Below are positions 1 to 64,000 of a stretch of 64,000 bases of DNA, one piece after another; within the stretch, counting starts at the first letter, position 1; the number at the start of each line of letters is the position of its first letter. Both the position numbers and the translations under genes were made by a program. Origin of the DNA: Verrucomicrobiales bacterium (GTDB lineage Bacteria; Verrucomicrobiota; Verrucomicrobiia; Limisphaerales; UBA9464); NCBI GenBank assembly GCA_016793645.1, contig JAEUHD010000212.1:37-64036 (forward strand), given 5' to 3'. The notes under the pieces were generated by a model that saw nothing but the letters and a program-made list of their open reading frames with translations, made no database searches and was not told the DNA's origin.

Positions 1-3000
1 TCAGCTCCAGGAGGCTCCCTTCATCCACCCCGGGCCGGCCCACCTCCGCAAACACGGGCGCCTGGTTCCCTCCCGAATCGATCTCCACCCGGACATAATC
101 AAAGGCAACCCAATAGGAAACCCCCGGGTTGGAGGGGCCGGTTCGGACAAACTCGATGGAGTTTCCGCCGGGCAGGGCTCCGACATCCGCCACCGAAAAC
201 TCGGCCGTCATCACGGTCGGCGAGGAAAACACCATGGACTTCACGGGAGTGACCTCGCCGGCCCCGTTCCGGAAGCGGAAGGCCACTTCGTGCTCGGCGA
301 ATCCAGGAACCGGTTGGCCCCCGATCAAGGATCCCGCATTCGAAAACTCCGCCACCACCCGGATCCAGGTTCCCAGGCTGCCCTGGGCCTCGGTGAGGCG
401 GAAATTCAGGCGATTGGTCAGGTCGCCGAGGGTCAGGGCGCGCTCCCACGACGCGGGAGGCTCATCATTCGGGACGACCAACCGATCCGACAGGCCGTTG
501 AACCCACGCGCGAATATTCCCCGGACATAAAAGTCATCATCCACCCCCGGATTGTTCGCCCCGTCGTACAGAGGATCGCCCGGCAATCGTGTCACGAATC
601 CGGGGGGGGGATCATTCCGGTTGTTCTGAATCTGAAATTCCCGCAGAGGATTGTACGGCTGCGTCGCCGGATCATCGTCCACCCCCACCTGGATGACGGA
701 ACGCTCCTCAACCGGCCAGGCCACCACCGTGAACTGATTCGTGACGCTCAAGGGGGGCACTCCGTCGTCCGATACCCGAACCAGCACGAGGTTCGTGGAC
801 GGGACCTGGTCCGCGGCGGGCTTCCACGTGACACCACCCGAGGCACTCACCGTCAGGCCGTCGGGTCCGGACACCAGGTCATAGGTGAGCGTATTCGCGG
901 GCCGATCCAGATCGGATCCCGACAGGAAAAGCCCCAGGGGCACCAGGGCGTCCACCACCTGTTCCGCCACAGGCCCCAGCAAGGGCGCACTGTTCACCTC
1001 GTTGACCGTCACCGAAATCTGGTTGGTGGCGCTGAGGGGAGGATTCCCGTCGTCCGTCACCCGGACAACGACGTTGGTCACCATGGGTCCCTGTTCCTCC
1101 GTCGGCGTCCATTCCAGGACACCAGCCTCCGTCACCCGCATGCCCGGCGGCCCCGAAAGAATCGCGTAAATCAGCCCGTTGGCAGGCACGTCCCCGTCGA
1201 CAACCTGAAGCGGGATTCTCAGGAGCGCCAACTCATCCGCGGTCACCGGATCCACCGGACGGAACGCCGGGGCCGAATTGCCCTCGCGGACGACCACGGT
1301 GAATTCGTTGGTCACCGACAGGGACGGGTCGCCGTCATCAGACAGTCGGACGACCACCGCATTGGTGGACGGCCCCTGTTCCTCCGTGGGCGTCCAGGCC
1401 ACCGACCCCGCGGGGGAAATCGTCAACCCCGCCGGCCCGCGAACCAAACCAAACGTGAGACGGTTGGTGGGCGAGTCGGCGTCGGAGCCGGTGAGGACCA
1501 GCGCCAGCGCCTCCAGTTCATTGACCGTCTGGACCGGCACCGGATCCAGGACGGGTGGGGCATTCACTTCGCGGACCACCACCCTGAACTCGTTTGTGGC
1601 ACTCAGGGGAGGCACCCCCCCGTCCGAGACCCGCACCTGAACCGTGTTCGTGGACGGCCCCTGCGTCTCATCCGGCGTCCAGACCACCAATCCGGAGGCA
1701 CTCACGGTCATTCCCTCCGGAACACTGACCGCGGCATACGTCATCACGTTCGGAGGAATGTCGCCATCCTCCACGGACAACTGGACCGAAAACGTCGCCA
1801 ATTCGTTGATGGTGACGGGCGCCTGGGCCACGAACACCGGTGCGGTGTTCACCTCGGTCACGACGACCGTGAATCCGTTGGTGGCACTCAGGTTCGGAAT
1901 CCCGTTGTCCCTCACCTGGACCAGGACCGCATTGGTCGAGGGCCCCTGCTCTTCGGACGGTTTCCAGGCGAGGACTCCCTCCGGACTTACCGTCATCCCC
2001 GGGGGCCCGCTGACGAGGGAGTATTCGAGGGAATTGGGAGGGAAATCCGCGTCGTCACCGCCCAGGTTGAGGGCGAAGGACACCTTCTCCGGCAGGGTCT
2101 GATTTGCGACCGGCACCAGGGAGGGCGCAACATTGACCTCCCCAACCGACACGGTGAACACGTTGGTAACGCTCAGGGGCGGAACCCCGTCATCCGTGAC
2201 CCGTACGGACACCACGGAGGAGGATGGCCCCTGGATTTCCCCCGGGGTCCAAGCGAGCAGGCCGTCCTCCGACACGCCCAGACCCTCCGGACCGCTGATC
2301 AGCGAATAGGTCAACCGATTCCCCGGAAGGTCCGGATCGCTGGCGGAGAACTGGAGACTCCACGGGACCCGTTCCAAAATCGACGGGGTTCCAACACCTG
2401 GAAATTGGGGCGGTCGATTGACCTCACGGACTACCAGGAGGAATTGATTGGTGGTGCTCAGACGCGGAAGGCCGTTGTCACTCACCGAAATCGTCACGGT
2501 GTTGGTTCCGGGACCGTCCGCTTCCCCTGGAGTCCACGTCAACACGGCGGTCCCCAACCCCGTCCCCGTCAGGTTCATTCCCGCGGGACCACCCACCAGG
2601 GCGAAGGTCAGGGTGTTGGCCGGAACATCGACATCCGTCGCACTGACGATCAACTGCCATCCCACCCCTTCATCCGTCTGCTGCAGGCCGATGGGCGCCA
2701 AGATGGGTGGCGTATTGGCGGGTGCGGCCTGGGAAAGGATGGCGACTCCCCCGGCTCCATCCGCCACATAGGCCAGTCCCGAGACCACCTGAAATCCCAA
2801 GGCGTTGCCCCGTGTGTTCACCAGCGACGTCCTCCCCACATTGGACGCGTCCTGCACGTTGAATGAACCCATTCCAGCCGTGTCTTCGGCGACCAGCGCC
2901 GTCGACGACTGGACCTCAATCGCCCGGGCGGTTCCCGCCGTCGCCACCGTGGCCACCCGGGTGATCGAGGTGGGACTGGTGACATCGAGGATCTGAATGC

Positions 3001-8914: not shown

Positions 8915-8933
8915 GGAAGTGGTTGAAGGTTTG

Positions 8934-10064: not shown

Positions 10065-10193
10065 GATGTCCCCACCCTATCGGGGCCCCGTCCGCGCTCA
10101 AGCCTTCGATCCAAAAGGACGCAACTCCCTGAACGAAGGCTTGTCGAATCACACCAAATGCGAATCGTCCCCCGGTCCCCGCCTTCGTCGTCC

Positions 10194-20431: not shown

Positions 20432-20576
20432 CCGCGGCGACGCTACGGGGGCACCTCGGGGACGGCAACCCCGGTCTCGACCCGGAAGTTTGCGGAACGG
20501 AATTCAACAACCCACGGACCGGACAGTTGAGCTTTCGCTGCGTCGCGGACAGGATCCCGTGTCCACCACCCCGCTG

Positions 20577-28654: not shown

Positions 28655-28734
28655 CCCATCCCGCCCCCGGTCTCATGCCACCGGGATTCTCCACCTTGTC
28701 TCGCCTTCAATTCCCACACTACCCTGATTCCACC

Positions 28735-29460: not shown

Positions 29461-29496
29461 GCCGCAGGAGCGGTCACCGATCGTCCTTGGAATCCC

Positions 29497-31425: not shown

Positions 31426-31430
31426 TTCCA

Positions 31431-41357: not shown

Positions 41358-44090
41358 CTACCTCTCAGAAACCACGCGCAGAAAGGGGTGGACCGGCTCC
41401 CATTGCCCGGGCGTCGGAATCTCAACAAACCCGTTCGCAGGGATGACGAGGTCCACCGGGCTCCACGTCACGAAATCCGAGGACCCCTCCAGTCGATGCT
41501 TTCCCAAAGGATCGGCCGACAGACCGAACAGGACAAAGTTGGCCTCCCGCCGACGACGTGGAACGAGTGAAAGGACGGGGGCTTCGGAATTCGGATCATC
41601 CACATGCAATTCGCAAGGGTGACTGATCGCCAAACCGTGGCGGTTCCCAACGTGGAGCTCATACGCTCCGGCGTCCGCATCAGAAAACCTGGATACCACC
41701 AACGTTGCGTTGGTCTCTCCGGCAACCGGGTTCCCCAAGCGATACCATTGGAAGGCGAGCGGCGGTTCGCCCGCCGTGACCGCACCCACCACCACCCGCT
41801 GCCCCAATGGGACCGCCCCGGCGGACGAGACTCCCAGAACCCGGGGTTCGAATGCCCCACGGCCCCCTTCCAGTCGTGCGAGTCCCCATCGCTCCTCTCC
41901 GTCAAAACGCCTGAAGTCCCCATAGACGATCATGCTGTCGTCCGGTTGCACGAACAGGGCGCGAACCGGTCTGTCGGCTCCCACGCCCCGCACAAAGGAC
42001 TCGTCCACTGTGCCGTCCGGGTTGAGGCGGATCACCGATGCGGAGGAGACACCGCCGATGCTGCGGAAGGCCCCACCCAGGAGGATCCGCCCCTGGTGAT
42101 CCACCGAGACGGCATTCACAGCCCCATCCACTCTTCCCGGGGAACGAAAACTTGGGTCGGGCGTCCCGTCTTCGGACAGTCGCAGAATGTCGGCATAATG
42201 GGACGGCGTGCCGTCGGCCAGGGAATCCACGGCCAATACCACGCGACCATCCCGCTGAGCGTAGGCAGCCTGAACCCGGGTTCCCGGCGGCAGGGAACTT
42301 CGAAAATTTCGATCCGGATTCAATGTGGGAAGCAACCGGGCCACACCCGGGCTGATCCAGCCGGCAACCCCTGTGAAGGTTCCCCACAGGAGGATTCGGT
42401 CGTCTGCCAGCACCTGCCCGACCGCGCCACCTTGGGGGGTATCCGTTTGAACCGTCCTGGGATGACTGGGATCTTGGGGAGAGACCCGGAACACCTCGTC
42501 CTTCACGACAATTTGCGACAGGTCACTTTGCAATTGATACCCTCGGAGGCTTCGAACCCGCGGACTCGCGATCGCGACGGGTCTCCTGCTTCCGTCGCTT
42601 TCAATCCAGGCCAACCAGCCGGACATGGAATCATGCGCCAGAACGCGACCATCCGGAGTCGCGGAATAGGTCACCGTGTCGTCCTCACGAAGCCAGAGCG
42701 TCAGAGGTCGGTCCAACTCTCCTCCCAAACCCAGAACCGCGGTGCCGGTAACGAACTGGCCATCCACCGACTCAAATTCCGAAGACGCTTTCGGGAATAG
42801 AAGTTTCCCGTCCGGAAATGGAGTCGGACGCGGTGGAGTCACCGACCTCGTCACTTCCGGCGAACGGAACTGCAGAACCTCGTTGGCCGGGGAGAAAAGC
42901 CATGTCGTGTAGCGAAAGCGCCCCTGAGGATCGGAATTCTCGCCGAATCCAGTGGGAGCAACGGAGGTGGCCAGAACCATTAGGTTTTCCCCGGGCGTCC
43001 GGATGACCTCAGGAAAGGGAAAATCCTGAACCAACTCAGGCAATGGGCGGCGGGAGACCGCGATACCCGTTCCATCCAGTTCGACAAGCGCCGCGCGGTG
43101 GGGAGGGCTGGGAGATTCCTGGACGAGGACACGCCAATGCCCCTCGGCAGTAGCCTCGACGCTCGAATAGATCTCCAGACTCGGTTGAAAATTCGGATTT
43201 GCCCGACCACTGGGAAGCAACTGCACCGCCCGGGAGATTCCAACATCCTCTTCCGGGGTAATGTCGAACCCAACCATGAACACGGTACCGTCCGGTCCGA
43301 CCGCCACCCTTCCTGGGAACGTCACGTTCAACTCTGCCGGCGGCTGATAGCCCTGATCCAAGCCGCCCCCGGGCTGGAGTCGCTCCCAACGGGTGCCAAT
43401 GTGCCCCTGCAGTACGCGCTCCTTCGGGATGTATTGCACGGCAATGCGCCCATCCTCCAGAACCCACGCGCCTTCGAACCTGCGGCCGTCGTTGACGGCA
43501 CAGGAAAACGTCGGATCCTCAGTGCCAGTCGGCAGCAACCGCACCAGTTGGTGTTGGCGGCCGTAGAAGGGCTCCGGCAAATCTCGAACCACCAGCAATC
43601 TGCCATCGGGCTGAACCGCCAATAAATGCCAGGCTTCTGCCTCCGATGCCATGGGAAGCCTGAACGCCTCGTCGCGCCGTCCGTCCTCGGTCAAGTGAAG
43701 GATTCCCTTTCGATCTGAGGATCCGGTCCCGTCGTAGGGTGGCGAAAGATACACGTACACTCCGCCATCGGGTTGGGGAAAGACTGCGTTCAGGACGGCG
43801 TTCGTCAGGAATGGCGACGCCACAAAACCGGTATCAATCGTCCCGTCCGAAAAGACCCGCGCCAGACGGCGAACTTCAGTTCCGGAAATGTCGATCACGT
43901 CGGGCGCAACCTCCAACAGCAGCCGGCCATCGGGATACGGGTGAATTCCGTACGGCTGATTTCGTTGCTCGAATCGGGGATGATACGCCGGATCCAACTT
44001 TCCCCCGCCGGCCAGCAATGGCGAACGGGAGAGAATCATCCATCCGGTGAGGGCACCCACCGCCGCAAGCGTGATTCGAAGCCGGAGCAT
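41358..44090 (-). CDS. Secreted delta-60-repeat beta-propeller protein with Ig-like domain
   Basis: Start reset to MLRLRITLAAVGALTGWMIL (cat at 44088-44090). The listed ORF up to 45143 is antisense to the methyltransferase. Repeats have the form DG..D.(S/T)F.......V.A...Q.DG(R/K)I(L/V)..G.F. The Ig unit reads PLAFQWYRLG...ATLVVSRFSDADAGAYELHV. Confidence 0.75.
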   Translation of the reverse strand: MLRLRITLAAVGALTGWMILSRSPLLAGGGKLDPAYHPRFEQRNQPYGIHPYPDGRLLLEVAPDVIDISGTEVRRLARVFSDGTIDTGFVASPFLTNAVLNAVFPQPDGGVYVYLSPPYDGTGSSDRKGILHLTEDGRRDEAFRLPMASEAEAWHLLAVQPDGRLLVVRDLPEPFYGRQHQLVRLLPTGTEDPTFSCAVNDGRRFEGAWVLEDGRIAVQYIPKERVLQGHIGTRWERLQPGGGLDQGYQPPAELNVTFPGRVAVGPDGTVFMVGFDITPEEDVGISRAVQLLPSGRANPNFQPSLEIYSSVEATAEGHWRVLVQESPSPPHRAALVELDGTGIAVSRRPLPELVQDFPFPEVIRTPGENLMVLATSVAPTGFGENSDPQGRFRYTTWLFSPANEVLQFRSPEVTRSVTPPRPTPFPDGKLLFPKASSEFESVDGQFVTGTAVLGLGGELDRPLTLWLREDDTVTYSATPDGRVLAHDSMSGWLAWIESDGSRRPVAIASPRVRSLRGYQLQSDLSQIVVKDEVFRVSPQDPSHPRTVQTDTPQGGAVGQVLADDRILLWGTFTGVAGWISPGVARLLPTLNPDRNFRSSLPPGTRVQAAYAQRDGRVVLAVDSLADGTPSHYADILRLSEDGTPDPSFRSPGRVDGAVNAVSVDHQGRILLGGAFRSIGGVSSASVIRLNPDGTVDESFVRGVGADRPVRALFVQPDDSMIVYGDFRRFDGEERWGLARLEGGRGAFEPRVLGVSSAGAVPLGQRVVVGAVTAGEPPLAFQWYRLGNPVAGETNATLVVSRFSDADAGAYELHVGNRHGLAISHPCELHVDDPNSEAPVLSLVPRRRREANFVLFGLSADPLGKHRLEGSSDFVTWSPVDLVIPANGFVEIPTPGQWEPVHPFLRVVSER

Positions 44091-44285
44091 GGCTGTCTCG
44101 TTGGATCGTCTGTATTCCCAACGGTGACCGATCGGGAACCGGGCCGTGGCCCTCGCCCAAGAACGCAACTGCAATGCCAACAGCCCAACGGAAGATGGGC
44201 CCACTTCAGGAATATCCCTCACCCACAACTTCCCGGGCCATCCCGCTTGGAATTCCCGACGGGAGTTCGTACAAGCGCCGCGACG

Positions 44286-44978
44286 ATGAACACCGGGGAT
44301 CTTCGGATATTTACCGACACCTGGTCCCTGTACGACCGGGTCCTGCTCGGGAACTACATGTTCCACGAGGAGATTTTTCGGGTCGTTGGCGACCTCCTGT
44401 CCACCCGGTGCCGCCCGGGCGAGTTCCGGATTCTCGACCTCGGATGCGGAAATGCACGCCACCTCGCGTCCATCCTCATCGGACGCCCTCCCGCACTCTA
44501 TGCCGGCTACGATCTGTCCGCCTCGGCACTGTGCCAGGCCCGATCCCAACTCGACGCCCTCCCCTGCCCCTCGGATCTCCGCCAGGCCGACTTTCGGGAT
44601 GCGTTTCACACCCTTGCCAATCCATTTGGGGTAATCTTCTCCAGTTTCGCGGTGCATCACCTCTCCTTCGATCAGAAGCAGCAATTCTTCCTCGACGCGC
44701 GGAACCTTCTCGCGCCGGGTGGATTTCTTCTGCTGGTGGACACCAGCCGGGAAGCCGATGAGGACCGGGAGGCCTATCTGCGGAACTATTGCCAATGGGT
44801 GCACGCCGATTGGTCCGCGCTTTCGGCCGGGGACCTCGCCGCCATTGAGGACCACATCCGGAAACGGGATTTCCCCGAAACCAGCGCCGCCATTCAAACC
44901 ATGGCGGCGTCCGCGGGTTTCCGCCGCTCGGCGGTGGTGGCCCGGTACCGATGGCATCGCACCTGGCTGTTGGAGTGA
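44286..44978 (+). CDS. Class I SAM-dependent methyltransferase
   Basis: Start reset to MNTGDLRIFTD. Contains ILDLGCGNARH (motif I) and LAPGGFLLLVD. Confidence 0.8.
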   Translation: MNTGDLRIFTDTWSLYDRVLLGNYMFHEEIFRVVGDLLSTRCRPGEFRILDLGCGNARHLASILIGRPPALYAGYDLSASALCQARSQLDALPCPSDLRQADFRDAFHTLANPFGVIFSSFAVHHLSFDQKQQFFLDARNLLAPGGFLLLVDTSREADEDREAYLRNYCQWVHADWSALSAGDLAAIEDHIRKRDFPETSAAIQTMAASAGFRRSAVVARYRWHRTWLLE

Positions 44979-45157
44979 TCGAATGAAACCAACGACGGGT
45001 CCGACGGGTCGTGGAGAGTGACGATCCGGTCGGACGCTGTCGGGCTCCCTGAGGTACCCAAATCGACCGGCGCGAAGCCTTGACGGATGAAACACATCCC
45101 CGGATAGTCCGCCGCTCGTTTCTGGACTCCGGGACAGTGCCACCGGTGGCCTTTGCT

Positions 45158-50820: not shown

Positions 50821-50913
50821 CGTCGAGCCCATCCTACGAATGGCGGCACAAATGGAAAGGATCGTGCGTCCCCCTCCCGTCCAAAGAGGTTGCCCCCAGG
50901 CTGGTCCCGGAGA

Positions 50914-51984: not shown

Positions 51985-51999
51985 TCCCCGGTCCGAAAC

Positions 52000-53829: not shown

Positions 53830-54957
53830 ATGAAGTTCCCGAATCCCTCCCTGACCGCCCTCGCCACCGGTATCGTCCTGTTGAGCCTGCAGCCCCCGGC
53901 CGCAGCCCACCCGTCGACCAACGACTCCGCCGCCGGACCGGCCCCGCTGGCGCTTCCCGTCCTGCTGGAGACCCGGGGGCCGGTCCCCGCTCCCGCGCCC
54001 ACGGCGCCGGGTTCGGGGCTCAAGACGAGTGGCCAGGGTTTCTGGACCTTCGCGGCGGTGCCTGACGTGCTTCCGTTGCCGATCGAGACCCAGCCCTTCA
54101 TCAAGGGTGCCCACGGAACCGTGCTCGTCGACTATCCCACCGACACCCTGTACTGGGGACTCGAGAACATCGGCTTCGTCGGCTTCAGCAACCGTCTTTC
54201 CAGTTCGTGGGTGGTTCACGCCGGGCCGGAGCTCCGCCGCGGCAACCTGCACGGTGCCGACATCCTTGCCCGCTCCGGCAAACCGCCCCTCATTGCCGCA
54301 GCCGACAACGTCGAAGGAGAGGTCTATCTCACCGACACGACGTTCCAGAAGGTCGAGAAGCTCGGCATCCCCTCCCTGCCGCCCTATTCGGACAAGAAGG
54401 GATTCGCCCCCACGGACGTCGCCTTCACGGGAAGGAATGAGCTCTACGTCACCGACGGATACGGCAAGGCCTACTTCATGCCGACGACGCTGGAACCGTT
54501 TTCCTACACCGGGAAATATTTTGGAGGAAAGGCCATGTCCCAGACGCCGCACGGCATCACCTGGTCCCCCGCGGATCGGACCCTGCTGATCTCGGCCCGC
54601 CCGGAGGCACAGATCAAGCAGTGGAGTCCGGTGAAGGAACAATTCCTCCAGGTCCTGGGGCTGCCGGCCGGAAGCATCGTGTGCGATGTGGATCTCTGGG
54701 GCGACTACGCCCTCGCCGCCTGCCTCGACAGCGCCGCCGGAAAGCCGGGCGCTCTTTACATCGTCAACATGCGCAAGCGGGCCATCGTCAGCGTCGTGAA
54801 GCCCAAGGAGGAGCTGGGCTACGATTTTGCCCAGCACATGCATGACGCCTGCTGGTACGTTCCCAGAAAGGGGCGCACCCAGGACGTGTACATTGTGTTC
54901 ACCGCCTGGAATCCCGGTGGCATCGGCGCCCTGAAGCTGGTCCACGCGAATCCCTGA
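53830..54957 (+). CDS. Secreted hypothetical protein, probably a beta-propeller (NHL/TolB-like)
   Basis: Start reset to MKFPNPSLTALATGIVLLSLQPPAAA. Contains repeated ..LYVTDGYG.. / ..LYIVN.. strands. Confidence 0.55.
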   Translation: MKFPNPSLTALATGIVLLSLQPPAAAHPSTNDSAAGPAPLALPVLLETRGPVPAPAPTAPGSGLKTSGQGFWTFAAVPDVLPLPIETQPFIKGAHGTVLVDYPTDTLYWGLENIGFVGFSNRLSSSWVVHAGPELRRGNLHGADILARSGKPPLIAAADNVEGEVYLTDTTFQKVEKLGIPSLPPYSDKKGFAPTDVAFTGRNELYVTDGYGKAYFMPTTLEPFSYTGKYFGGKAMSQTPHGITWSPADRTLLISARPEAQIKQWSPVKEQFLQVLGLPAGSIVCDVDLWGDYALAACLDSAAGKPGALYIVNMRKRAIVSVVKPKEELGYDFAQHMHDACWYVPRKGRTQDVYIVFTAWNPGGIGALKLVHANP

Positions 54958-55077
54958 AGGTCAGTCCGGAAAGGCCCTGAGGCGCGGACGCCTCCCGGAA
55001 ACGGGGCGTGTCGGATCCACGGAGTCCTTTCCCCGGCATCCCGTCCGGCGCGGCGGGATTCCCGCAACCCCGCTAAC

Positions 55078-55147
55078 TGGGTAAGGTGCGAAACAATTTC
55101 GTTTCCCCGGGAGCCCGTGCGGACGCGAAATCCGGGCAAACCCTTAC
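55078..55147 (+). promoter_or_regulatory. Structured, paralog-conserved leader element upstream of 55214 (counterpart at about 60700-60752)
   Basis: GTAAGG (55081-86) pairs with CCTTAC (55142-47). This encloses CGAAA-caa-TTTCG and CCCGG..CCG-tg-CGG..CCGGG. The 9-mer CCCCGGGAG sits 109 nt before the ATG of the first paralog (55105) and 108 nt before the ATG of the second (60713). Confidence 0.35.
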
Positions 55148-55213
55148 TTACTTCAACCAACTGATTTTCGTAATCGGGCTTGTTTTCCCAACAAAACCTA
55201 GTTTTATGGGATC

Positions 55214-58200
55214 ATGAATGTTGAGCGCTTTGGACGCGCCCCCCATTTCTTTCACCTCCTGCTCCTGTGTTTTCTTCCGAGTGCGGCTGACGCACAATGG
55301 TTGACCGGAGGGCCCTCACCCCTCCCCGTCCGCGCTCCGCAGGCGGCGTACACCGTGGTGGACGCATTCCCGGGAATGCCGTTTCCGCTGGCGACCGACG
55401 CGCCCGTCACGCTCGCAACGCCCCCCGGAGGAACAAACGAACTCTTCGTCGGCGGCCTGTTTGGGCAGGTGTATGTGATCACCAATCTCACGGCGCCCAC
55501 CAAGACGCTGTTCCTCGACATTTCCGCGAAGACGTTCGCTCCCGGGGCCACCCTTTCGGAATCGGGCCTGGTCGGCCTGGCCTTCCATCCCCGGTACGCG
55601 CAGAACCGCTACTTCTATGTCTTCTACACGCGGACGAACCTCGTGGAGGGAAAAACGTATGATACGCTCTCGCGATTCGAGACGGATCCGGAGAATCCGT
55701 GGCGGGCGCTTCCGGATTCCGAGCACATCCTGATCTCCCAATGGGACCGACATGATGTTCATCAGGCGGGCGATCTCCACTTCGGAGCCGATGGCTACCT
55801 GTACGTGTCCCTGGGTGACGAGGGGACGCCGAATGACTTCTTCAAGAACAGCCAGCGGATCGATCAGAACTTCTTTTCTGGAATCCTCCGGATCGATGTC
55901 GACAGTCTTCCCGGAAACCTGCCGCCGAACCCCCATCCGTCCGTCGTCGGCGAATACAGGGTTCCCGCCGACAACCCGTTCGTCGGGGCCACGAGCTTCA
56001 ACGGGATTCCGGTCCCCCCCGAATCGGTCCGCACCGAGTTCTACGCGGTGGGACTGAGAAACCCCCACCGCTTCTCGATCGATTCCGCCACGGGGGAAAT
56101 CTACAGCGGGGACGTGGGGGCCTCCCGACTGGAGGAGGTCAACCGGATCGTCAAGGGCGGCAACTATGGCTGGGCGTATCTGGAGGGAAACCTCCGTTTC
56201 CCGGATGCGGCGATCGGCGCTCCGCCGCCAGGATTCACATCCATCCCGCCCATCTACAGCTACGCCCACACCGGTGACGATCCGAACTTCACAGGGCATG
56301 CGATCATCGGCGGCTTTGTCTATCGGGGGAAGGCCCATCCCGAACTGATCGGAAAGTACATCTTCGGGGACGTCTTCTCCTGCCACGTCTGGGCCATGAC
56401 GCTGAATCCGTCCGGCCCGCCCACGGTCACCCGCATCGCCACCGGCAACCGCGGAATGAGTTCCTTCGCCATCCACCCGGGCACCGGGGAGATTCTCCTG
56501 TGCGAACTCTTCGGAGGCAGGATTTCCAAACTTCAAAGAACCTCCGTCGAGGGGGACTCCACGCTTCCGCCGACCCTGGGAGAATCCCGGGTGTTCTCCG
56601 ATCTCGAAACGCTCACCCCGGCGGCGGGTGCGGTCCCCTACGATGTGATGTCCACCTTCTGGTCCGACAACGCCATCAAGCGCCGCTGGTTCTTCATGCA
56701 GAACGCCACCGACCGCATCCACCGGGAATCCGACGGCCAATGGAGCTACCCGACGGGCACCGTGTTCGTGAAGCACTTCGACTTTGAATTTGAAGTGGGG
56801 AATCCCGCCTCCCGCCGCCGACTGGAAACGCGGATCCTGATGAAGACCGAGGACGCCACCTATGGCATCACCTACAAGTGGCGGCCGGATGGACTCGAGG
56901 CGGACCTGGTTCCGGACTCCGGACTCGACGAATCCCTTCAGATCAACGACGGCGGCATTGTCCGAACCCAGGTCTGGCACTATCCGGGACGATCCGAGTG
57001 TCTGACCTGCCACAACAGCGGCGCGCGCCACGTCCTCGGATTCAATGCGCTCCAACTCAACCGGGACGTCCCTTCCGGGGATGGGACGCCGGTCAACCAA
57101 CTGGCCCTGCTTTCCCGCCTCGGTGTTTTCGACAATCCCGTCACCTCCCCGGAAAGTCTGCCGCACCTCTCCGCCATCACCGACACCGCGGCGTCGGTGG
57201 AGTCGAGGTTCAAGACCTACCTCGAAGTGAACTGCGCCTATTGCCATCTGCCCGGAGGCCTGGGACGTGGCGTCTGGGATGCCCGGTTCACGACCCCCTT
57301 GGATGAGTCCGGCATCATCAATGGAAGCGTCATTGACGACCTCGGCGTCCCCGGAGCCCGCGTCATCCGCCCCGGAGATCCCACCGCCTCCGTGATGTGG
57401 AAGCGTGTCGCCGAAATGGGCGCGGACCACATGCCGCCCCTCGGCACCTCGGTCCTGAACACGACGGGCATCGCGTTGTTGGAGCAGTTCATCCAGGGCT
57501 ATGTCACGGCCAGCGCGGACCGAACCGTCTGGCAGGTCGGCCAGGACTCCCCGCCGGGAACCCGGGCGACGCTGACCTTTGCGGAGTTCTCCCTGCCCAA
57601 CAACCGGAACGACGCCCCGCCCGGCGCGGTCACCCGGGAATTGGGGGACGCGGACTATGATCCCGATTCAAACCCCAAGGCGGATGACGACTATTACTTC
57701 AAGGGAACCTACCCGGCCGGCTTCAACGGCCTCACGGGGGAACGTGTCGTCTCCGCAGACGAACCGAGCTGGGCCTGGGAGCGCGCCCACACCCTCGGTG
57801 ATCCCGTCAACCGGATCCATTTTGTTCTCACCCCGGACCAGGTCGCCGAAGGGGCACGATTCCGACTCCGGTTTGAAATGTCCGCCGGCGGATACGCCGT
57901 GGACAACGTCCCGCGGTCGGGATTCAGCGCCCATGATTTCGTGGTTCGCTTCCGCAATGGAGACGGTGTGGAGACCACCCTCTACTCGCAAACCCTGACC
58001 CGGCCCACGGACACCACCGTGGATTTTCTCGGCACCACGGTCCATGCGACCGCCGGAGCCAACACCATCGAGTTCACGCGGACCGGCCCCGCGGCTCCGT
58101 CAACCTCCTACTGGATCGAATACGATGTGGTTCGACTGGAACAACTGGTCCACGCGAACTCCGCGCCGGAATTTTCCGAGGCCGATCCGCAGACAATTCC

Positions 58201-60385
58201 GGAACTGCTTCCCTGGACCTGGAACGTGACCGCCACCGACGTGGATGCCGAGGACGAGCTCACCTACTCGCTGGTGAGCGGACCCGCAGGCATGACCCTG
58301 ACGCCCGCCGGGGAGCTGTCCTGGACACCCACCGAAGCACAGGGACCATCCACCAACCTCGTGACGGTGCGGGTCATGGACAATGGATTCCCACGGCTCA
58401 GCGCCGTGCAACAGGTGGTCGTAATCGTGCTGGAGGTACCCGATCCCGTATCCGGGCCGCGCACGACCTGGCAGATTGGGGACGATGCTCCCCCCGGATC
58501 GAAGCCCCCCACCACCGTCGCGGAATTCTCAATGCAGAACGCCCGGAGGGACGCGCCTCCAGGGGAGGTCACCCGACTCCCGGACGATCCCGAGTTCCTC
58601 GGCGAGGCCAACCCGGGACCGGATGACGACTTCTATTTCGCGGGCTTCTACCCGGCAGGCTTCAATGGCCTGGAGGTGGATCGAATCGTTCCGGTGGACG
58701 AACCCGCATCGGCATGGGAGAGAGCCCACACGCTGGGGGATCCGGTCAACCGATTCCACTTCGTCCTCAGCCCGGTGCAGGTGGCGGAAGGTTCGCGATT
58801 CCGCCTTCGCTTCGAGCTTCCCACCGGGGGAAGTTCGGAACCCGGATCCGGGTTTGGAGCCCACGACTTCGAGGTCCGGTTCCTGAATGGCGCGGGGGCG
58901 GCCACGACCCTGTTCTCCCAGCACCTGACGCAGCCCACGGATGCGACCGTCGAGTTTCTTGCGACGGACGTCGCCGCAACGCCCGGACCGAACACCATTG
59001 AACTGGTCCGGACCGGACCGTCCGCCGACGAGACCTCCTATTGGCTCGAGTACGATGTCGTTCGACTCGAAGCCCTCGGCGGCGCCGCGAACACCGCCCC
59101 CTCCTTCGTCGCACCCGGAACACAAACCATTCCGGAACTGACCCCCTGGTCGATGCCGGTGCCGGCCCACGATGCCGATGTTCCCGCCAACATTCTCACT
59201 TATAAACTCCTGGGCGGTCCCGAGGGAATGGGCATCGGAAAGTACGATGGGCTCCTTTCCTGGACACCCGGCGAAACCCAGGGACCGTCCACCAACCTGA
59301 TCACTGTCCAGGTCACCGACAATGGAACCCCACCCCTCAGCGAGACCGTCCAGTTCACCGTGGTGGTCGAGGAGCTGGAGGATGTTGCCGGGGCTCCGCG
59401 CAACGTTTGGAAGATTGGGGAGGACGCCCCGGTGGGCGCCACCCTCCGTTCCAATTATTCGGAGTTCTCGCCCCCGAACTACAGGAACGATCCCCGTCCC
59501 GGTCACGTGACCCGTCTGCCGGATGATCCGCTTTACGTGGCCGAGTCCAATCCGAAGGCCGACGATGATTTCTACTTCAAGGGGGACTATCCCGCCGGAT
59601 TCAATGGTTTGTCCGAAGCCCTTCCGGTCCCGAACGACGAGCCAGCGTCCGCATGGGAGTATGATCACACGCGAGGGGATGCCACGAACCGATTCCACTT
59701 CATCCTCTCCCCGGAACAGGTGGCGCCCGGCGCGCGGTTCCGCATCAGCATGGAGTTCCCGACCGGCGGCCGGAGAATTGGCAACAAGATCGCCCCCGGC
59801 TTCGGGACTCACGACATGGTCGTGCGATTCCGCAATGAGGCGGGACGGGAGACCGTTCTCCAATCCGTACGCCTGACCCAGGGTTCCCGGTTGTGGACGG
59901 ATTTCACGGCCGCGGACGTCGGTGCGAATGTCGGGCCGAACACGATTGATATCGTCCGGGTCGGCCCCCGGGTGGAGGGCGAGCAGCCCTGGATCACCTA
60001 CGATTTCGTCCGGTTGGAGTCGCTCGTGACGCCAAGCCCGGGTGAGGTCGCGAGCGTCGAACCGACGACGGAAGCTCCGCGGGTCGCCGCCTTCTCCCCT
60101 GCCCCGCGGGCCGTCCGGGCACCCGCACTGAAGCCGGGCTCGATCACCGCGGCAGGCGGCGAGTATCTCACCCTCACCTACGCGCGTCCCTCCGGGGTGA
60201 AGCACCAGGTGGAGGTCAGCGAGGATCTCCTGACCTGGACTCCGGCAACGGTGGTCAAAATCGCGGAGACCCAGGTGGACGGAAAATGGATGGTCACGGT
60301 CCGCGACACGGTTCCCGTCGGGGAGGGACGTCATCGGTTCCTCCGCCTCCGGGTGTCGGCAACGGGCTCGCAGGTCGCGGAGTGA
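55214..60385 (+). CDS. Giant secreted fusion protein: PQQ-type soluble sugar dehydrogenase propeller, then a di-CxxCH (HNE_0200-like) domain, then 3 copies of a novel module interleaved with 2 cadherin-like domains, then a C-terminal beta-sandwich tail
   Basis: Signal peptide LLLLCFLPSAADA. SGDH motifs: GLVGLAFHPRYAQNRYFYVFYT, HQAGDLHFGADGYLYVSLGDEG, GLRNPHRFSID..GDVG...EEVN..KGGNYGW. CLTCH lies at 56999-57013 and CAYCH at 57233-57247, within ..YDVMSTFWSDNAIKRRWF...PTGTVFVKHF...LETRILM... Repeats begin at 57521, 58460 and 59399. Confidence 0.9.
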   Translation: MNVERFGRAPHFFHLLLLCFLPSAADAQWLTGGPSPLPVRAPQAAYTVVDAFPGMPFPLATDAPVTLATPPGGTNELFVGGLFGQVYVITNLTAPTKTLFLDISAKTFAPGATLSESGLVGLAFHPRYAQNRYFYVFYTRTNLVEGKTYDTLSRFETDPENPWRALPDSEHILISQWDRHDVHQAGDLHFGADGYLYVSLGDEGTPNDFFKNSQRIDQNFFSGILRIDVDSLPGNLPPNPHPSVVGEYRVPADNPFVGATSFNGIPVPPESVRTEFYAVGLRNPHRFSIDSATGEIYSGDVGASRLEEVNRIVKGGNYGWAYLEGNLRFPDAAIGAPPPGFTSIPPIYSYAHTGDDPNFTGHAIIGGFVYRGKAHPELIGKYIFGDVFSCHVWAMTLNPSGPPTVTRIATGNRGMSSFAIHPGTGEILLCELFGGRISKLQRTSVEGDSTLPPTLGESRVFSDLETLTPAAGAVPYDVMSTFWSDNAIKRRWFFMQNATDRIHRESDGQWSYPTGTVFVKHFDFEFEVGNPASRRRLETRILMKTEDATYGITYKWRPDGLEADLVPDSGLDESLQINDGGIVRTQVWHYPGRSECLTCHNSGARHVLGFNALQLNRDVPSGDGTPVNQLALLSRLGVFDNPVTSPESLPHLSAITDTAASVESRFKTYLEVNCAYCHLPGGLGRGVWDARFTTPLDESGIINGSVIDDLGVPGARVIRPGDPTASVMWKRVAEMGADHMPPLGTSVLNTTGIALLEQFIQGYVTASADRTVWQVGQDSPPGTRATLTFAEFSLPNNRNDAPPGAVTRELGDADYDPDSNPKADDDYYFKGTYPAGFNGLTGERVVSADEPSWAWERAHTLGDPVNRIHFVLTPDQVAEGARFRLRFEMSAGGYAVDNVPRSGFSAHDFVVRFRNGDGVETTLYSQTLTRPTDTTVDFLGTTVHATAGANTIEFTRTGPAAPSTSYWIEYDVVRLEQLVHANSAPEFSEADPQTIPELLPWTWNVTATDVDAEDELTYSLVSGPAGMTLTPAGELSWTPTEAQGPSTNLVTVRVMDNGFPRLSAVQQVVVIVLEVPDPVSGPRTTWQIGDDAPPGSKPPTTVAEFSMQNARRDAPPGEVTRLPDDPEFLGEANPGPDDDFYFAGFYPAGFNGLEVDRIVPVDEPASAWERAHTLGDPVNRFHFVLSPVQVAEGSRFRLRFELPTGGSSEPGSGFGAHDFEVRFLNGAGAATTLFSQHLTQPTDATVEFLATDVAATPGPNTIELVRTGPSADETSYWLEYDVVRLEALGGAANTAPSFVAPGTQTIPELTPWSMPVPAHDADVPANILTYKLLGGPEGMGIGKYDGLLSWTPGETQGPSTNLITVQVTDNGTPPLSETVQFTVVVEELEDVAGAPRNVWKIGEDAPVGATLRSNYSEFSPPNYRNDPRPGHVTRLPDDPLYVAESNPKADDDFYFKGDYPAGFNGLSEALPVPNDEPASAWEYDHTRGDATNRFHFILSPEQVAPGARFRISMEFPTGGRRIGNKIAPGFGTHDMVVRFRNEAGRETVLQSVRLTQGSRLWTDFTAADVGANVGPNTIDIVRVGPRVEGEQPWITYDFVRLESLVTPSPGEVASVEPTTEAPRVAAFSPAPRAVRAPALKPGSITAAGGEYLTLTYARPSGVKHQVEVSEDLLTWTPATVVKIAETQVDGKWMVTVRDTVPVGEGRHRFLRLRVSATGSQVAE
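57521..60025 (+). repeat. In-frame tandem repeat with an exact 939-nt (313-aa) period, 2.67 units (coding)
   Basis: The landmark codons R-T-(V/T)-W (R-N-V-W in unit 3) start at 57521, 58460 and 59399. Each unit is an approximately 215-aa module plus a cadherin-like domain of about 95 aa. Unit 3 lacks the cadherin part. Confidence 0.9.
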
Positions 60386-60597
60386 TCCCGCACAATCCGG
60401 CAACAATCCCGAGTTGCCAGCGAGCCTTCCGCTGAAGCGGGGCTCTCGGAACTCGACGCCGCTCGGCACCCACCGCGCTCGTCAAGGCGCCCCCCCCACG
60501 CGGGTGGTCGCGGCTGAGCCGACGCGGACCGCCGGCGACAGCGCCGCCGCCTGCCGGGAATTCGCGGGAAGCCCCGAATTGCTGGCGGTGAGTCATA

Positions 60598-60649
60598 CCC
60601 AGGGCCGACCGTCTTCCCGATCACCATCGGGAAATGGTCGGCCCTCGGG
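60598..60649 (+). other. Long nested hairpin in the inter-paralog spacer (possible terminator or processing site, no U-tract)
   Basis: AGGGCCGACC (60601-10) pairs with GGTCGGCCCT (60636-45). Inside it, TTCCCGAT (60614-21) pairs with ATCGGGAA (60626-33), leaving loop cacc. Confidence 0.4.
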
Positions 60650-60820
60650 ATGACGAGCGCGGGGACTCCGATTCGAGAAATGCCGGGACGGAATCCCGCT
60701 TCCGCGTCACGTCCCCGGGAGTCCGAGGACGAACTTCCGAACCCCGCCTTACGCACCCAAGAAGCTCTTCTTGTTGCAATGCGACTTGTATTTGGGGGCA
60801 TTCGTTGCTCTCTATGGTTC

Positions 60821-63800
60821 ATGAGTTTAGTGCGTAACGGGTGCACGCCGCGGTGGATTTGGACACTTCTCCTGGCCTTGTTGCCGGGATACTCCTACGC
60901 ACAGTGGTTGACCGGTGGCCCCTCCCCTCTTCCCCTCACGGCGCCGCAGGCCGCCTACACCGTGGTCGATGCCTTCCCCGGACTCTCGCTCCCGCTCGCC
61001 ACGGACGCCCCCGTGGCCCTGGCCACCCCCCCGGGTCGGACGAATGAATTGTTCATCGGGGGACTGTTCGGAAAGGTCTACGTCATCACCAACCTGCTGG
61101 CACCGACCAAGACGGTGTTCCTCGATCTTTCGGCGAACACATATGCCCCTGGAGCTACCCTCTCAGAGTCGGGATTGGTCGGATTGGTGTTTCATCCCCA
61201 GTACGCGCAGAACCGCTACTTCTACGTCTTCTACACCCGAACCAACCGACTGGAGGGAAAAACCTACGACACCCTTTCCCGGTTCCAAACCGATCCCGCC
61301 AATCCTTGGAGGGCGCTCCCGGACTCCGAGCGGATCCTGTTCTCGCAATGGGACGAGCATGACATCCATCAGGCCGGCGACCTCCATTTTGGTCCGGACG
61401 GCTACCTCTACGCCTCACTCGGGGACGAAGGGGCGCAGAACGACCTCTTCAGGAACAGCCAGCGGATCGACAAGGACTTCTACTCCGGAATCATCCGCAT
61501 TGATGTGGACGAAAAGGCGGGAAGCCTGGCGCCGAATCCGCACTCCGCAATCGGCGGCGGATACCGGATTCCCCCCGACAATCCGTACATCGGCGCGACC
61601 AGCTTCAATGGACTCCCCGTCTCCCCCACCTCGGTCCGAACGGAATTGTGGGCGGTGGGTCTCCGAAACCCGCATCGCTTCTGCATCGATTCCCTCACCG
61701 GGGAATTGTACGGCGGCGATGTCGGCGGTTCGCGAGAGGAGGAGGTGAATCGCCTCGTGAAGGGCGGCAACTATGGCTGGGGATACTACGAGGGCACCCT
61801 GTTCAATCCCGATGCCCTCATCGGAGCGCCGCCGGCGGGCTTCACCTCGACTCCCCCCATCTACACCTACCCCCACACCGGGGGCGACCCAAACTTCACC
61901 GGTCATGCGGTCATCGGAGGCCTGGTGTACCGGGACACCACCTATCCTGATCTCTACGGCAAATACATCTTCGGTGACGTCTTTTCCTGCCATGTCTGGG
62001 CCATGACGCTGAATCCATCCGGAACGCCGACCGTCGCCCGGATCGCGACCGCCCCTCGCGGAATGAGTTCCTTTGCGATTCATCCTGGCACGGGGGAGAT
62101 CCTGTTGTGCGAACTGTTTGGGGGCCGGATTTCCAAGCTTCAGCGCTCTTCCGTCTCGGGTGATCCCGCGCTCCCCGCGACGCTGAGCGCCTCCCGCGTC
62201 TTCGCGAACACGGCCTCCCTGACACCCGCGGCCGGAGCCGTCCCCTACGACGTCATGTCGACCTTCTGGTCGGACAACGCGATCAAGCGTCGCTGGTTCT
62301 TCATGCAGAATGCGACGGACCGGATTCGGCGCAATACCGGGGACCAGTGGACCTATCCCACGGGAACCGTGTTCGTGAAACATTTCGATTTTGAATTCGA
62401 GGTCGGGAATCCCGCCTCGCGCCGCCGCCTGGAAACCCGCGTGCTGATGAAGACTGCGGATGCCATCTACGGACTCACGTACAAGTGGCGTCCCGACGGA
62501 CTGGACGCGGACCTGGTCCCGGACGCCGGACTCAACGAATCCCTCGTGATCAACGACGGCGGCATCATCCGAACCCAGGTGTGGCGCTATCCGGGACGTT
62601 CCGAATGCCTCACCTGCCACAACGGCAATGCGCGGCACGTTCTCGGCTTCAACGCGCTTCAACTCAACCGGAGTGTCACCAATGGGGCGGGCGCGACCGT
62701 CAACCAACTCGCCCTGTTCTCCGGACTGGGGGTGTTCGACACCCCGATCCCAAACCCCGAGTCACTGCCCCGCCTGTCGGCGATCAATGACACCACCGCT
62801 TCGTTGGAATCGCGGTTCAAGACGTACCTTGAGGTCAACTGCGCCTACTGCCATCAACCCGGAGGACTGGGTCGCGGGGTTTGGGATGGCCGGTTCTCCA
62901 CGCCCCTGGACCAGGCGGGCATCATCAATGGAACCGTGGCCGACGATCTCGGGGTTCCCGGCGCCCGGGTCATTCTTCCCGGCGTGCCCGCCTCGTCCGT
63001 CCTTTGGAAACGGGTCGCCGAAATGGATTCGAATCACATGCCCCCCCTCGGGACCTCGGTGCCGAACACCGCGGGCATTTCCCTCCTCGAACAATTCATC
63101 ATCAGCTACGTGCCGCCCACGGTGGAGCGGACCGTCTGGCAGATCGGACAGGATTCCCCGCCGGGCACCCTGCCCCCGACCACGTTTGCGGAGTTTTCCC
63201 TTCCGAACAACCGGGCGGATCCATCCCCGGGAGTGGTGACCCGCCAACTGGGAGATCCCGAGTTTGTGGCCGACGCCAATCCCGGCGCCGACGATGACTT
63301 CTACTTCGCCGGCACCTATCCCGCCGGATTCAACGGATTGACCACCCCCCGATCCGTACCGTCGGATGAACCCGCGTGGGCGTGGGAGCGGGCCCATACC
63401 CTGGGGGACACTGCCAACCGATTCCATTTCGTCCTGAGCCCGGCACAGGTCGCCGCGGGCGTGAAGTTCAAGCTTCGGTTCGAACTGTCCAGCGGCGGAT
63501 GGGCCGTGGGCGGAGTTCCCCGAACGGGCTTCGGCACCCACGATTTCAGCGTCCGGTTCCGGAACGGATCCGGCGTGACGACCACCCTCTACTCGCAACG
63601 GCTCACCCAGGCCACCGATGCCTCGATGGAATTCCTCGCAACGGCCGTCGCGGCAACGGCGGGCCCGAACACGATCGAACTCATTCGGACCGGTCCCGCG
63701 GCGGCGAACACCTCGTACTGGGCGGAGTATGACGTGGTACGCCTGGAGCAGGTTCTTCCGCCCAATACGGCGCCGGTCTTTACGGCCGTGGGCACCCCAT

Positions 63801-64000
63801 CCATCCCCGAACTGACCCCGTGGACCATGAACCTTGTGGCGACGGATGCGGACATCCCCGCCAATACCCTGACCTATTCCCTGGTCAGCGGACCGGACGG
63901 TCTGTCCGTGACCGGAGCCGGGGTCATGACGTGGACGCCGACCGAGGCACAGGGCCCCTCCACCAATGTGGTCACGGTGAAGGTAGCCGACAATGGAACC
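60821..64000 (+). CDS. Tandem paralog of 55214..60385 (PQQ-type sugar dehydrogenase, di-CxxCH domain, novel module, cadherin-like domain); 3' end cut by window edge (>=1060 aa)
   Basis: Absent from the ORF track because it has no stop in the window. ATG 60821 gives MSLVRNGCTPRWIWTLLLALLPGYSYAQWLTGGPSPLP... It is colinear with the upstream gene. CLTCH lies at 62606-62620 and CAYCH at 62840-62854. The module starts (RTVW) at 63128, which is 2307 nt from the ATG, the same offset as in the first copy. Confidence 0.88.
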   Translation, partial: MSLVRNGCTPRWIWTLLLALLPGYSYAQWLTGGPSPLPLTAPQAAYTVVDAFPGLSLPLATDAPVALATPPGRTNELFIGGLFGKVYVITNLLAPTKTVFLDLSANTYAPGATLSESGLVGLVFHPQYAQNRYFYVFYTRTNRLEGKTYDTLSRFQTDPANPWRALPDSERILFSQWDEHDIHQAGDLHFGPDGYLYASLGDEGAQNDLFRNSQRIDKDFYSGIIRIDVDEKAGSLAPNPHSAIGGGYRIPPDNPYIGATSFNGLPVSPTSVRTELWAVGLRNPHRFCIDSLTGELYGGDVGGSREEEVNRLVKGGNYGWGYYEGTLFNPDALIGAPPAGFTSTPPIYTYPHTGGDPNFTGHAVIGGLVYRDTTYPDLYGKYIFGDVFSCHVWAMTLNPSGTPTVARIATAPRGMSSFAIHPGTGEILLCELFGGRISKLQRSSVSGDPALPATLSASRVFANTASLTPAAGAVPYDVMSTFWSDNAIKRRWFFMQNATDRIRRNTGDQWTYPTGTVFVKHFDFEFEVGNPASRRRLETRVLMKTADAIYGLTYKWRPDGLDADLVPDAGLNESLVINDGGIIRTQVWRYPGRSECLTCHNGNARHVLGFNALQLNRSVTNGAGATVNQLALFSGLGVFDTPIPNPESLPRLSAINDTTASLESRFKTYLEVNCAYCHQPGGLGRGVWDGRFSTPLDQAGIINGTVADDLGVPGARVILPGVPASSVLWKRVAEMDSNHMPPLGTSVPNTAGISLLEQFIISYVPPTVERTVWQIGQDSPPGTLPPTTFAEFSLPNNRADPSPGVVTRQLGDPEFVADANPGADDDFYFAGTYPAGFNGLTTPRSVPSDEPAWAWERAHTLGDTANRFHFVLSPAQVAAGVKFKLRFELSSGGWAVGGVPRTGFGTHDFSVRFRNGSGVTTTLYSQRLTQATDASMEFLATAVAATAGPNTIELIRTGPAAANTSYWAEYDVVRLEQVLPPNTAPVFTAVGTPSIPELTPWTMNLVATDADIPANTLTYSLVSGPDGLSVTGAGVMTWTPTEAQGPSTNVVTVKVADNGT

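Follow-up and report, generated by a model that had tools for sequence, protein, structure and literature searches.

Two tandem Verrucomicrobiales genes for giant exported propeller-dihaem proteins of doubtful PQQ dependence

Two head-to-tail genes, here called A and B, close the 64,000-nucleotide (nt) stretch of Verrucomicrobiales DNA that was analysed (the window). They encode giant proteins in which a signal peptide is followed by a six-bladed propeller, a domain with two CxxCH haem c attachment motifs, and an array of binding-type modules. We propose, with a probability of roughly 0.45, that they represent a Verrucomicrobiota-wide class of Sec-exported modular oxidoreductases in which the propeller oxidises a substrate, the electrons exit via the two c-haems, and the C-terminal modules target the enzyme. 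The cofactor, the substrate, the direction of electron flow, the haem ligands, and the final location are the parts of this proposal that are predicted from sequence.

The two genes and the signal peptide of A are as follows (aa, amino acids).

55214..60385, + strand: gene A, an intact open reading frame (ORF) of 1723 aa for a multidomain, exported protein, defined from the ORF and its translation.
55214..55294, + strand: signal peptide of A (aa 1-27, MNVERFGRAPHFFHLLLLCFLPSAADA, followed by QW), Sec-type, read by eye from the sequence.
60821..64000, + strand: 5' part of gene B from the ATG at 60821, with 1060 codons visible before the gene is cut by the window end.

At 100% identity, the product of gene A matches P0001, which GenBank lists as 'PQQ-dependent sugar dehydrogenase [Verrucomicrobiales bacterium]' (PQQ, pyrroloquinoline quinone), and the visible part of gene B equals a partial GenBank protein (P0007) from the same 64,192-nt contig of a Verrucomicrobiales metagenome-assembled genome (MAG). 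Signal peptides of the Sec type are present in both, with cleavage read by eye between AADA and QW in A and between SYA and QW in B; their presence fits the periplasmic maturation of c-type cytochromes. The original prediction of colinear tandem genes that are about three-quarters identical was borne out by BLASTP, which gave 793/1059 identities (75%) with one gap. Because the alignment is gapless over the first 1011 residues, the predicted landmark lies at the same nt offset, 2307, in both genes, where codon 770 begins the RTVWQ sequence that marks the start of the first C-terminal module. Visible gene B has the same order as gene A: signal peptide, propeller, dihaem domain, the first copy of a repeat that we call module X (63125-63772), and an immunoglobulin (Ig) domain.

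Identity between A and B by codon position was 82/88/51%. This pattern indicates purifying selection on both copies and shows A and B to be old, selected paralogues that are neither freshly duplicated nor an artefact of assembly. With the single-copy genes of two related MAGs (P0002 and P0003), each of which has one copy in matching synteny, gene B shares 83-84% identity, and gene A is 75-77% identical to gene B, P0002, and P0003. B is therefore the orthologue, and A is an extra, more diverged copy.

The first half of the predicted redox core is the propeller.

55346..56548, + strand: sGDH/HHIP-type six-bladed propeller of A (aa ~45-445; Pfam GSDH, E 9e-28; sGDH, soluble glucose dehydrogenase; HHIP, Hedgehog-interacting protein).

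Residues 115-399 matched Pfam GSDH (PF07995) with 97.9 bits (E 9e-28) in A and 94.9 bits (E 8e-27) in B, against a cut-off of 25. The cut-off of NCBIfam TIGR03606 (434.55) was not reached (52.5 bits in A and 53.4 in B). The residues that bind PQQ were mapped with hhalign, comparing 116 family propellers with five solved PQQ enzymes and using invariant Pro422 (sGDH Pro414) as an anchor; a plain MAFFT alignment, in which the last blade was misaligned, was dropped. The reference sGDH sequence was verified against 1C9U (454/454 residues), and the other references were YliI from E. coli K-12 together with 7CDY, 2ISM, and 3A9G, recovered by a YliI search. Part of the sGDH ligand identities is reportedly due to Oubrie et al. 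in 1999. The family and the solved enzymes aligned over 342 columns (probability 100%, E 1.5e-48). The remaining ligand identities were taken from PMC6881789.

The catalytic center is well kept. The catalytic base, His183 (sGDH His144), is present in A and B and in 98% of the 116 family members. Arg282 and Asn283, equivalent to the sGDH Arg228-Asn229 pair that binds PQQ O5/O4, are 100% and 96% conserved, and Glu307-Glu308 (sGDH Asp252-Glu253) is 100% conserved, as is Gly302 of the Ca loop (Asp300-Val301-Gly302 in A). The putative Ca2+ loop aligns in phmmer, but has Ala or Gln where sGDH has Pro, and Val in place of Gln246; the sGDH ligands at Gly247-Pro248 are backbone carbonyls. Arg286, gained with respect to sGDH, is invariant in the family. 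Since His183 and Arg282-Asn283 are kept, oxidation of a hydroxyl or hemiacetal with an o-quinone-type cofactor would be expected.

Several results weigh against such a quinoprotein reading. The three basic residues that bind the PQQ carboxylates in sGDH, and that all five solved enzymes share, are missing. In both A and B, sGDH Lys377 is replaced by Phe388, Arg406 by Gly414, and Arg408 by Ser416, and the corresponding family columns (n=116), none of them basic in any member, hold V/G/I, G/N/S, and A/S/V; no conserved basic residue was found in 404-417 among the 116 propellers. All five solved enzymes have a last-blade RxR(D/E)V motif (RIRDV, RIREV, RLREV, and RLRDV in the four other than sGDH), for which propeller A has Gly414-Met-Ser416 in a register fixed by invariant Pro422 and Phe418. 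The pocket is also more acidic, with sGDH Arg148 replaced by Asp187 and with Asp386 gained. By PDB sequence search the closest solved relative is HHIP (E 6e-16), with sGDH at E 8e-9. No pqq genes were found among the ORFs scanned in the window, and no conserved neighbour indicating a substrate or acceptor was found at the homologue loci examined. Finally, the GSDH-annotated propeller of Teredinibacter TERTU_3803 showed no PQQ binding and no activity (PMC10916295). The missing carboxylate ligands, with HHIP as the nearest solved relative, make PQQ dependence doubtful. The pyranose dehydrogenase of Coprinopsis cinerea (CcPDH) lacks several sGDH-type PQQ ligands and is still PQQ dependent (PMC4133262).

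Together, these alignments indicate that the catalytic residues have been retained and that the canonical PQQ cradle has been lost family-wide. Of the PQQ dehydrogenase originally predicted, the catalytic residues stood (His183 and Arg282-Asn283) and the carboxylate ligands did not. The NCBI name of family copies, 'PQQ-dependent sugar dehydrogenase', is a label derived only from homology.

The second half of the core is the dihaem domain.

56567..57496, + strand: SO2930/TIGR03806-type dihaem c domain of A (aa 452-761).
56999..57013, + strand: haem-1 attachment motif, C596-L-T-C599-H600, invariant in 27 aligned homologues.
57233..57247, + strand: haem-2 attachment motif, C674-A-Y-C677-H678.

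The NCBIfam family TIGR03806 matched from end to end (profile 2-312 of 314), with E 8e-56 in A and E 3e-59 in B. The scores of 189.5 (A) and 200.7 (B) bits are under the curated cut-off of 313.3, consistent with a divergent, fused subfamily of TIGR03806. Exactly two CxxCH motifs occur in each protein, at 596 and 674, and two were present in 117/117 homologous domains retrieved; a weak Pfam match to Cytochrome_CBB3 covers 667-753. Outside these motifs, the 27-sequence alignment has a sole invariant His, His521 (in KHF), and a sole invariant Met, Met740 (in HMPP). Met740, followed by two prolines, is the likely distal ligand of haem 2, and the pattern suggests one His/His haem and one His/Met haem.

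An AlphaFold 2 (AF2) model of the domain (pLDDT 87.5) has a beta-rich N-terminal half followed by a class-I-like helical half. The beta-rich half carries invariant aromatic and polar residues (FWSD, KHF, ETR, YxW, and QxW in the same alignment). The linker from the propeller is ~10 residues long. The model has high confidence in the first stretch of the dihaem domain, which suggests that the two domains form a rigid pair. Foldseek found no fold relative in the PDB at E<=1e-3, and a PDB profile search gave nothing significant, with similarity to a dihaem CcoP subunit (E 0.13) at motif level only. The literature searched held one incidental mention of TIGR03806/SO2930 and nothing specific. The dihaem domain is catalogued, without a defined function or a solved structural relative.

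From these features a working mechanism can be drawn. The functional core would be the N-terminal ~760 residues, made up of the sGDH/HHIP-type propeller and the SO2930-type domain with two covalently bound c-haems. The propeller would be the substrate-oxidising site, with His183 as general base and Arg282-Asn283 holding and polarising the quinone O4/O5 as in sGDH. The expected substrate group is a hydroxyl or hemiacetal, probably of a carbohydrate, and the cofactor a bound o-quinone type. Since the pocket appears rebuilt relative to sGDH and the aldose dehydrogenases (Asd), PQQ may be bound in another way, perhaps assisted by the dihaem domain, or a different cofactor may be used. Single electrons would then pass from haem 1 (His600, with His521 as candidate sixth ligand) to haem 2 (His678/Met740, class-I-like) and on to an external acceptor. 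The C-terminal half (three copies of module X, two He_PIG domains, and a beta domain) would serve as a non-catalytic, interchangeable scaffold that targets the core to a polymer or to the envelope.

The loss of all three PQQ-carboxylate ligands and the more acidic pocket would also fit a propeller that is not a quinoprotein at all, an explanation that we consider plausible and somewhat unlikely. The propeller would then serve in binding, like HHIP, or be a catalytic domain that needs no cofactor (e.g., a lactonase), and the dihaem domain would be the sole redox center, either as an enzyme with a peroxidase- or oxidase-type site at haem 1 on the beta-rich half or as a shuttle to a ligand held by the propeller and module X. 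HHIP is the top PDB sequence match and shares the FGD motif and Arg286 with A and B, and the TERTU_3803 propeller sets a precedent for a lack of PQQ binding. The many invariant aromatic and polar residues in the beta-rich dihaem half, which has no solved relative, leave room for a catalytic role there. Stand-alone TIGR03806 proteins pair with a beta-helix protein and are not known to pair with a dehydrogenase. However, the family keeps the RNP sequence (96-100%) and the catalytic His, whereas HHIP has lost the pair, which is hard to square with pure binding. A His/Met class-I-like haem next to a candidate bis-His haem would likewise resemble a relay and not an open catalytic haem.

An improbable variant of the oxidoreductase proposal is a distinct quinohaemoprotein-like class, with a non-sGDH cofactor site, a haem c fold without a solved relative as electron outlet, and, in the long variants, delivery to the cell surface by a new C-terminal sorting domain together with a new CBM-like module (CBM, carbohydrate-binding module). 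The cofactor would in that case be a non-PQQ redox cofactor, or PQQ held in part by the fused dihaem domain.

The propeller-dihaem core is widespread. More than 3100 proteins matched at E<=1e-10, and in a scan with one genome per species the dihaem domain had at least 578 relatives. Of these, the best 80 were almost all from Verrucomicrobiota, with 2-3 loci in several MAGs, and 76/80 of these loci had the propeller directly upstream of the dihaem domain. Module X followed the core in only 4/80, and in 27/120 of the closest homologues. Elsewhere in the family the C-terminal parts vary (MBG, Ig, cadherin, LamG, Calx-beta, FG-GAP, and fn3), and many members of just ~960-1100 aa have little besides the core. 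A constant core with varied C-terminal parts is the pattern expected of a catalytic core whose targeting modules can be exchanged. No characterised propeller-dihaem core was found, and the literature searched held nothing specific on GSDH-haem fusions in bacteria of the Planctomycetes-Verrucomicrobia-Chlamydiae (PVC) group. One genome, GCA_019634635.1, has at least two long module-X paralogues, of 1613 and 2429 aa, at unlinked loci (L003 and L004), the larger with five module X copies, which shows a lineage-specific expansion of the long form.

In gene A, the region beyond the core is built as follows.

57518..58165, + strand: module X copy 1 (aa 769-984), a jelly-roll, CBM-like module without a family model.
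58166..58447, + strand: Ig-like domain 1 of He_PIG/Big_9 type (aa ~985-1078), from He_PIG in A and the repeat alignment.
58457..59095, + strand: module X copy 2 (aa 1082-1294), 64% identical to copy 1.
59099..59377, + strand: Ig-like domain 2, He_PIG (aa 1296-1388; best Pfam stretch 1296-1385, E 8e-11).
59396..60037, + strand: module X copy 3 (aa 1395-1608), 52% identical to copy 1.
60134..60382, + strand: C-terminal ~80-aa beta domain (aa 1641-1723), with YLTLTY, VEVSEDLLTW, and RFLRLRV in that order.

The domain order of the original prediction is supported: a signal peptide precedes the GSDH propeller, the TIGR03806-like dihaem domain comes next, and Ig and binding-type repeats complete the series. 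Its repeated binding-type modules correspond to the three copies of module X. These are ~215 aa long, share 52-64% identity with one another, and are followed, for the first two, by a ~90-aa Ig-like domain. He_PIG scored 42.6 bits against a cut-off of 24, over two stretches in A, and Big_9 matched B at 982-1058 (Pfam). The Ig part of the predicted cadherin/Ig scaffold is upheld by these scores, while Cadherin stayed below the Pfam threshold (21.4 vs 28.8 bits).

Module X matched no Pfam or NCBIfam family. Its AF2 model (pLDDT 92.9) is a jelly-roll beta-sandwich with a loop-rich N-terminal extension, in which an invariant DDDxYFxGxYPxGFN loop sits. The best Foldseek match was a CBM-like domain of a rhamnogalacturonan lyase (E 3.5e-5); CBM22, BcsB, domain III of Cry toxins, and the P-domain of furin were also among the best. 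A profile search of 1.84 billion representative proteins found only 274 carriers, where module X is partnered by He_PIG, Big_9, cadherin-like, TSP3, LVIVD, DUF1800, GDSL, and cohesin domains. Rare and without a family, module X appears to be a new domain of CBM-like fold.

A second giant exported gene in the window also carries this module. It lies on the minus strand, starts at an ATG at 4600, and runs off the window start; the product, of at least 1533 aa, combines a signal peptide with LVIVD-repeat propeller(s) and several He_PIG/Big_9-type Ig repeats in a row, after which comes a module X (706..59) that is 45% identical to a gene A copy (E 9e-55). An ORF overlapping it on the + strand (290..2866) is probably spurious. 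As module X and He_PIG recur here behind an unrelated LVIVD propeller, the scaffold is a general-purpose cassette that is not confined to the redox core.

The C-terminal beta domain is separated from module X copy 3 by a Pro/Ala-rich linker. It was present in 35/265 fetched proteins, some of them without the propeller, at about 0-30 residues from the C-terminus (mostly <=15). No known sorting signal or anchor was matched in this tail by NCBIfam, and Pfam gave only a weak, sub-threshold match to DUF3999 (E 7e-5). A profile of the tail yielded 4 weak matches among 5.8 billion proteins, since a ~80-aa domain is too short for a database of that size. Conserved at the extreme C-terminus, the domain is a candidate for a sorting or anchoring tag of Verrucomicrobiota that has so far gone undescribed. 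A 1260-aa delta-60/DUF5122-repeat protein on the minus strand of the window (ORF 41358..45143) has a C-terminus (41373-41516, minus strand) that the tail of A weakly resembles (tblastn E 8.6e-4). The surface-displayed, extracellular location originally predicted had its basis in the signal peptide and the Ig-type domains, and no known sorting signal or anchor was found to add to them.

With Ig-like and jelly-roll repeats exceeding half of each protein, A and B could instead be mainly large surface adhesins or matrix proteins in which the redox core is an accessory, e.g., for sensing or local detoxification. The company that module X keeps in other giant proteins (He_PIG, cadherin-like, TSP3, cohesin, and LVIVD) and the common extreme C-terminal domain, which suggests common sorting, are in line with this. 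The family is built the other way round, however: the core is constant and the C-terminal array variable, as the low counts of module X behind the core and the many members with little besides the core attest, and we regard an adhesin function as quite improbable.

Very improbable is a bacterial counterpart of the fungal AA12-AA8-CBM pyranose dehydrogenases that delivers electrons to lytic polysaccharide monooxygenases (LPMOs) on a polysaccharide surface: the three-part logic of propeller, cytochrome, and binding module is alike and the fold of module X is CBM-like, but no LPMO (AA10) gene was found among the window ORFs scanned or at the five homologue loci examined, the haem sites are c-type and lie in a domain unrelated to an AA8 cytochrome b, CcPDH (6JWF) is absent from the PDB sequence matches at E<=0.01, and cytochrome domains failed to activate an LPMO in the one bacterial system tested (PMC10916295). 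The electron supply to LPMOs in the original prediction accordingly found no partner gene nearby, while its general logic, a dehydrogenase-like propeller wired to its own cytochrome and to targeting modules, is supported.

Gene neighbourhood was set aside as a clue to function: close relatives alone share it, and paralogues further removed have unrelated neighbours. The neighbours kept in close relatives are an Srs-like type III polyketide synthase (PKS) operon upstream and SIR2 and sugar ABC transporter genes downstream. The upstream set (50890-53753, + strand) consists of a type III PKS, a methyltransferase, and an FAD-binding monooxygenase, an arrangement kept in two related MAGs, and presumably resembles the SrsABC alkylresorcinol/alkylquinone operon of Streptomyces. 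Any link of this set to the redox proteins is pure speculation. Between it and gene A, adjoining the latter, lies a gene for a 375-aa secreted protein (~53830-54957, + strand) that matches no Pfam or NCBIfam family; by eye it is highly similar to its counterpart at homologue locus L002, which likewise stands immediately upstream of the orthologue. At loci L005 and L006 a 383-aa protein without a family occupies that place, with a CBAH gene and a small ORF between it and the orthologue.

No cytochrome c maturation genes were found among the window ORFs scanned. Elsewhere on the + strand, 8868-16946 encodes a protein of 2692 aa that combines five Lamin-tail (LTD) domains with one CotH kinase-like domain. 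At 20397-24843, also on the + strand, a gene for a PSCyt2/PSD1 (DUF1549/DUF1553) protein, which contains a single CxxCH, stands before one for a DUF1501 protein, a pair typical of Planctomycetes and Verrucomicrobia. A row of likely periplasmic sugar-processing genes follows at 27377-33653 (+ strand), comprising a GFO_IDH_MocA oxidoreductase, a 3-keto-disaccharide hydrolase, a fusion of SASA-type esterase and peptidase S9 folds, and a beta-helix/NosD-like protein.

Scans for expression signals gave nothing above background around the two genes, which are separated by a spacer of 435 nt containing an inverted repeat.

60592..60654: imperfect inverted repeat between A and B, whose 26-nt arms are 81% complementary and enclose an 11-nt loop.

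This repeat is possibly a terminator-like hairpin; no T-run follows it, and an Rfam scan of the locus, the repeat region included, matched no family. Consensus scans of 54900-60900 found no sigma-70-type promoter, and terminator-like sites there were not commoner than in shuffled sequence. The promoter and terminator scans left one weak site in the spacer, at 60773-60785.

The propeller-dihaem core occurs in hundreds of Verrucomicrobiota species, often in several copies per genome, so the accuracy of its label matters. If the PQQ label is wrong, as the missing carboxylate ligands and the negative TERTU_3803 result point towards, a large block of annotation is misleading, and so are inferences drawn from it on how Verrucomicrobiota of soil and freshwater use PQQ and lanthanides and oxidise sugars in the periplasm. 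Should the label be right, the family would offer a third mode of holding PQQ and a compact two-electron/one-electron converter with a new haem domain, of relevance for direct-electron-transfer biosensors. In either case, genes A and B are well-defined examples of three uncharacterised building blocks: the SO2930-type domain, module X, and the C-terminal tail.

The core was originally presented as a new extracellular redox system. It is already annotated automatically in hundreds of Verrucomicrobiota species, so the architecture is catalogued, with no function defined for it, and the AA12-AA8-CBM analogy has been published and tested with a negative result. That analogy was drawn for the Teredinibacter proteins TERTU_3803 and TERTU_2913 and for Cellvibrio japonicus Cbp2D/E (PMC10916295, PMC12055684), and the Teredinibacter cytochrome domains did not activate an LPMO (PMC10916295). 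These are secreted CBM-containing redox proteins that, like A and B, are bacterial and multimodular and combine a signal peptide, a GSDH-annotated propeller, c-type cytochrome domains, a beta-jelly-roll, and binding modules. Unlike A and B, they have cytochromes of the X183 and X132 types and carry CBM2 and CBM10; the propeller of TERTU_3803 (ACR14707.1) is designated pf08450-X173. Solved X183/X122 domains were not matched in the PDB sequence and profile searches and were not among the 50 best Foldseek matches listed.

CcPDH itself (AA12-AA8-CBM1) shares with A and B the six-bladed propeller, a built-in cytochrome, a binding module, and the absence of several sGDH-type PQQ ligands, and it nonetheless uses PQQ. 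Its cytochrome is an N-terminal cytochrome b (AA8) and its binding module a CBM1, whereas A and B have two C-terminal c-haems and module X with Ig domains; no Pfam domain for an AA8 cytochrome b or a classified CBM was found in A or B. The quinohaemoprotein alcohol dehydrogenases also combine a propeller dehydrogenase with a fused c-type cytochrome as electron outlet, but their fold is eight-bladed and unrelated, their single haem sits in a class-I domain of the classical kind, and they have no targeting modules. A preprint of July 2026, which covers ~22,000 six-bladed PQQ-type proteins of bacteria and notes a haem-binding domain on some of them, makes the same comparison.

Among the closer relatives of the individual domains, sGDH of A. 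calcoaceticus (1C9U), YliI of E. coli (2G8S), 7CDY, and the enzymes of T. thermophilus (2ISM) and P. aerophilum (3A9G) have the six-bladed fold in common with A and B. The sGDH/Asd enzymes also share the catalytic His, the Arg-Asn pair, the Ca-loop Gly, and a DEIN/EEVN motif. In contrast with them, A and B have no Lys377, Arg406, Arg408, or Arg148, possess Arg286, Asp187, and Asp386, and are fused to a dihaem domain. HHIP has the FGD motif and, like A and B, an Arg two residues past the conserved Pro (Arg286), but its LHDP sequence has lost the Arg-Asn pair where the family strictly conserves LRNP; it is a eukaryotic ligand-binding protein without haem domains and not an enzyme. The SO2930/HNE_0200 (TIGR03806) proteins match over the full profile and have both CxxCH motifs; they are stand-alone, whereas the domain of A and B is fused behind a propeller. 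Specific to A and B are the SO2930-type dihaem partner, the loss of the PQQ cradle with the catalytic triad kept, module X, and the candidate sorting domain.

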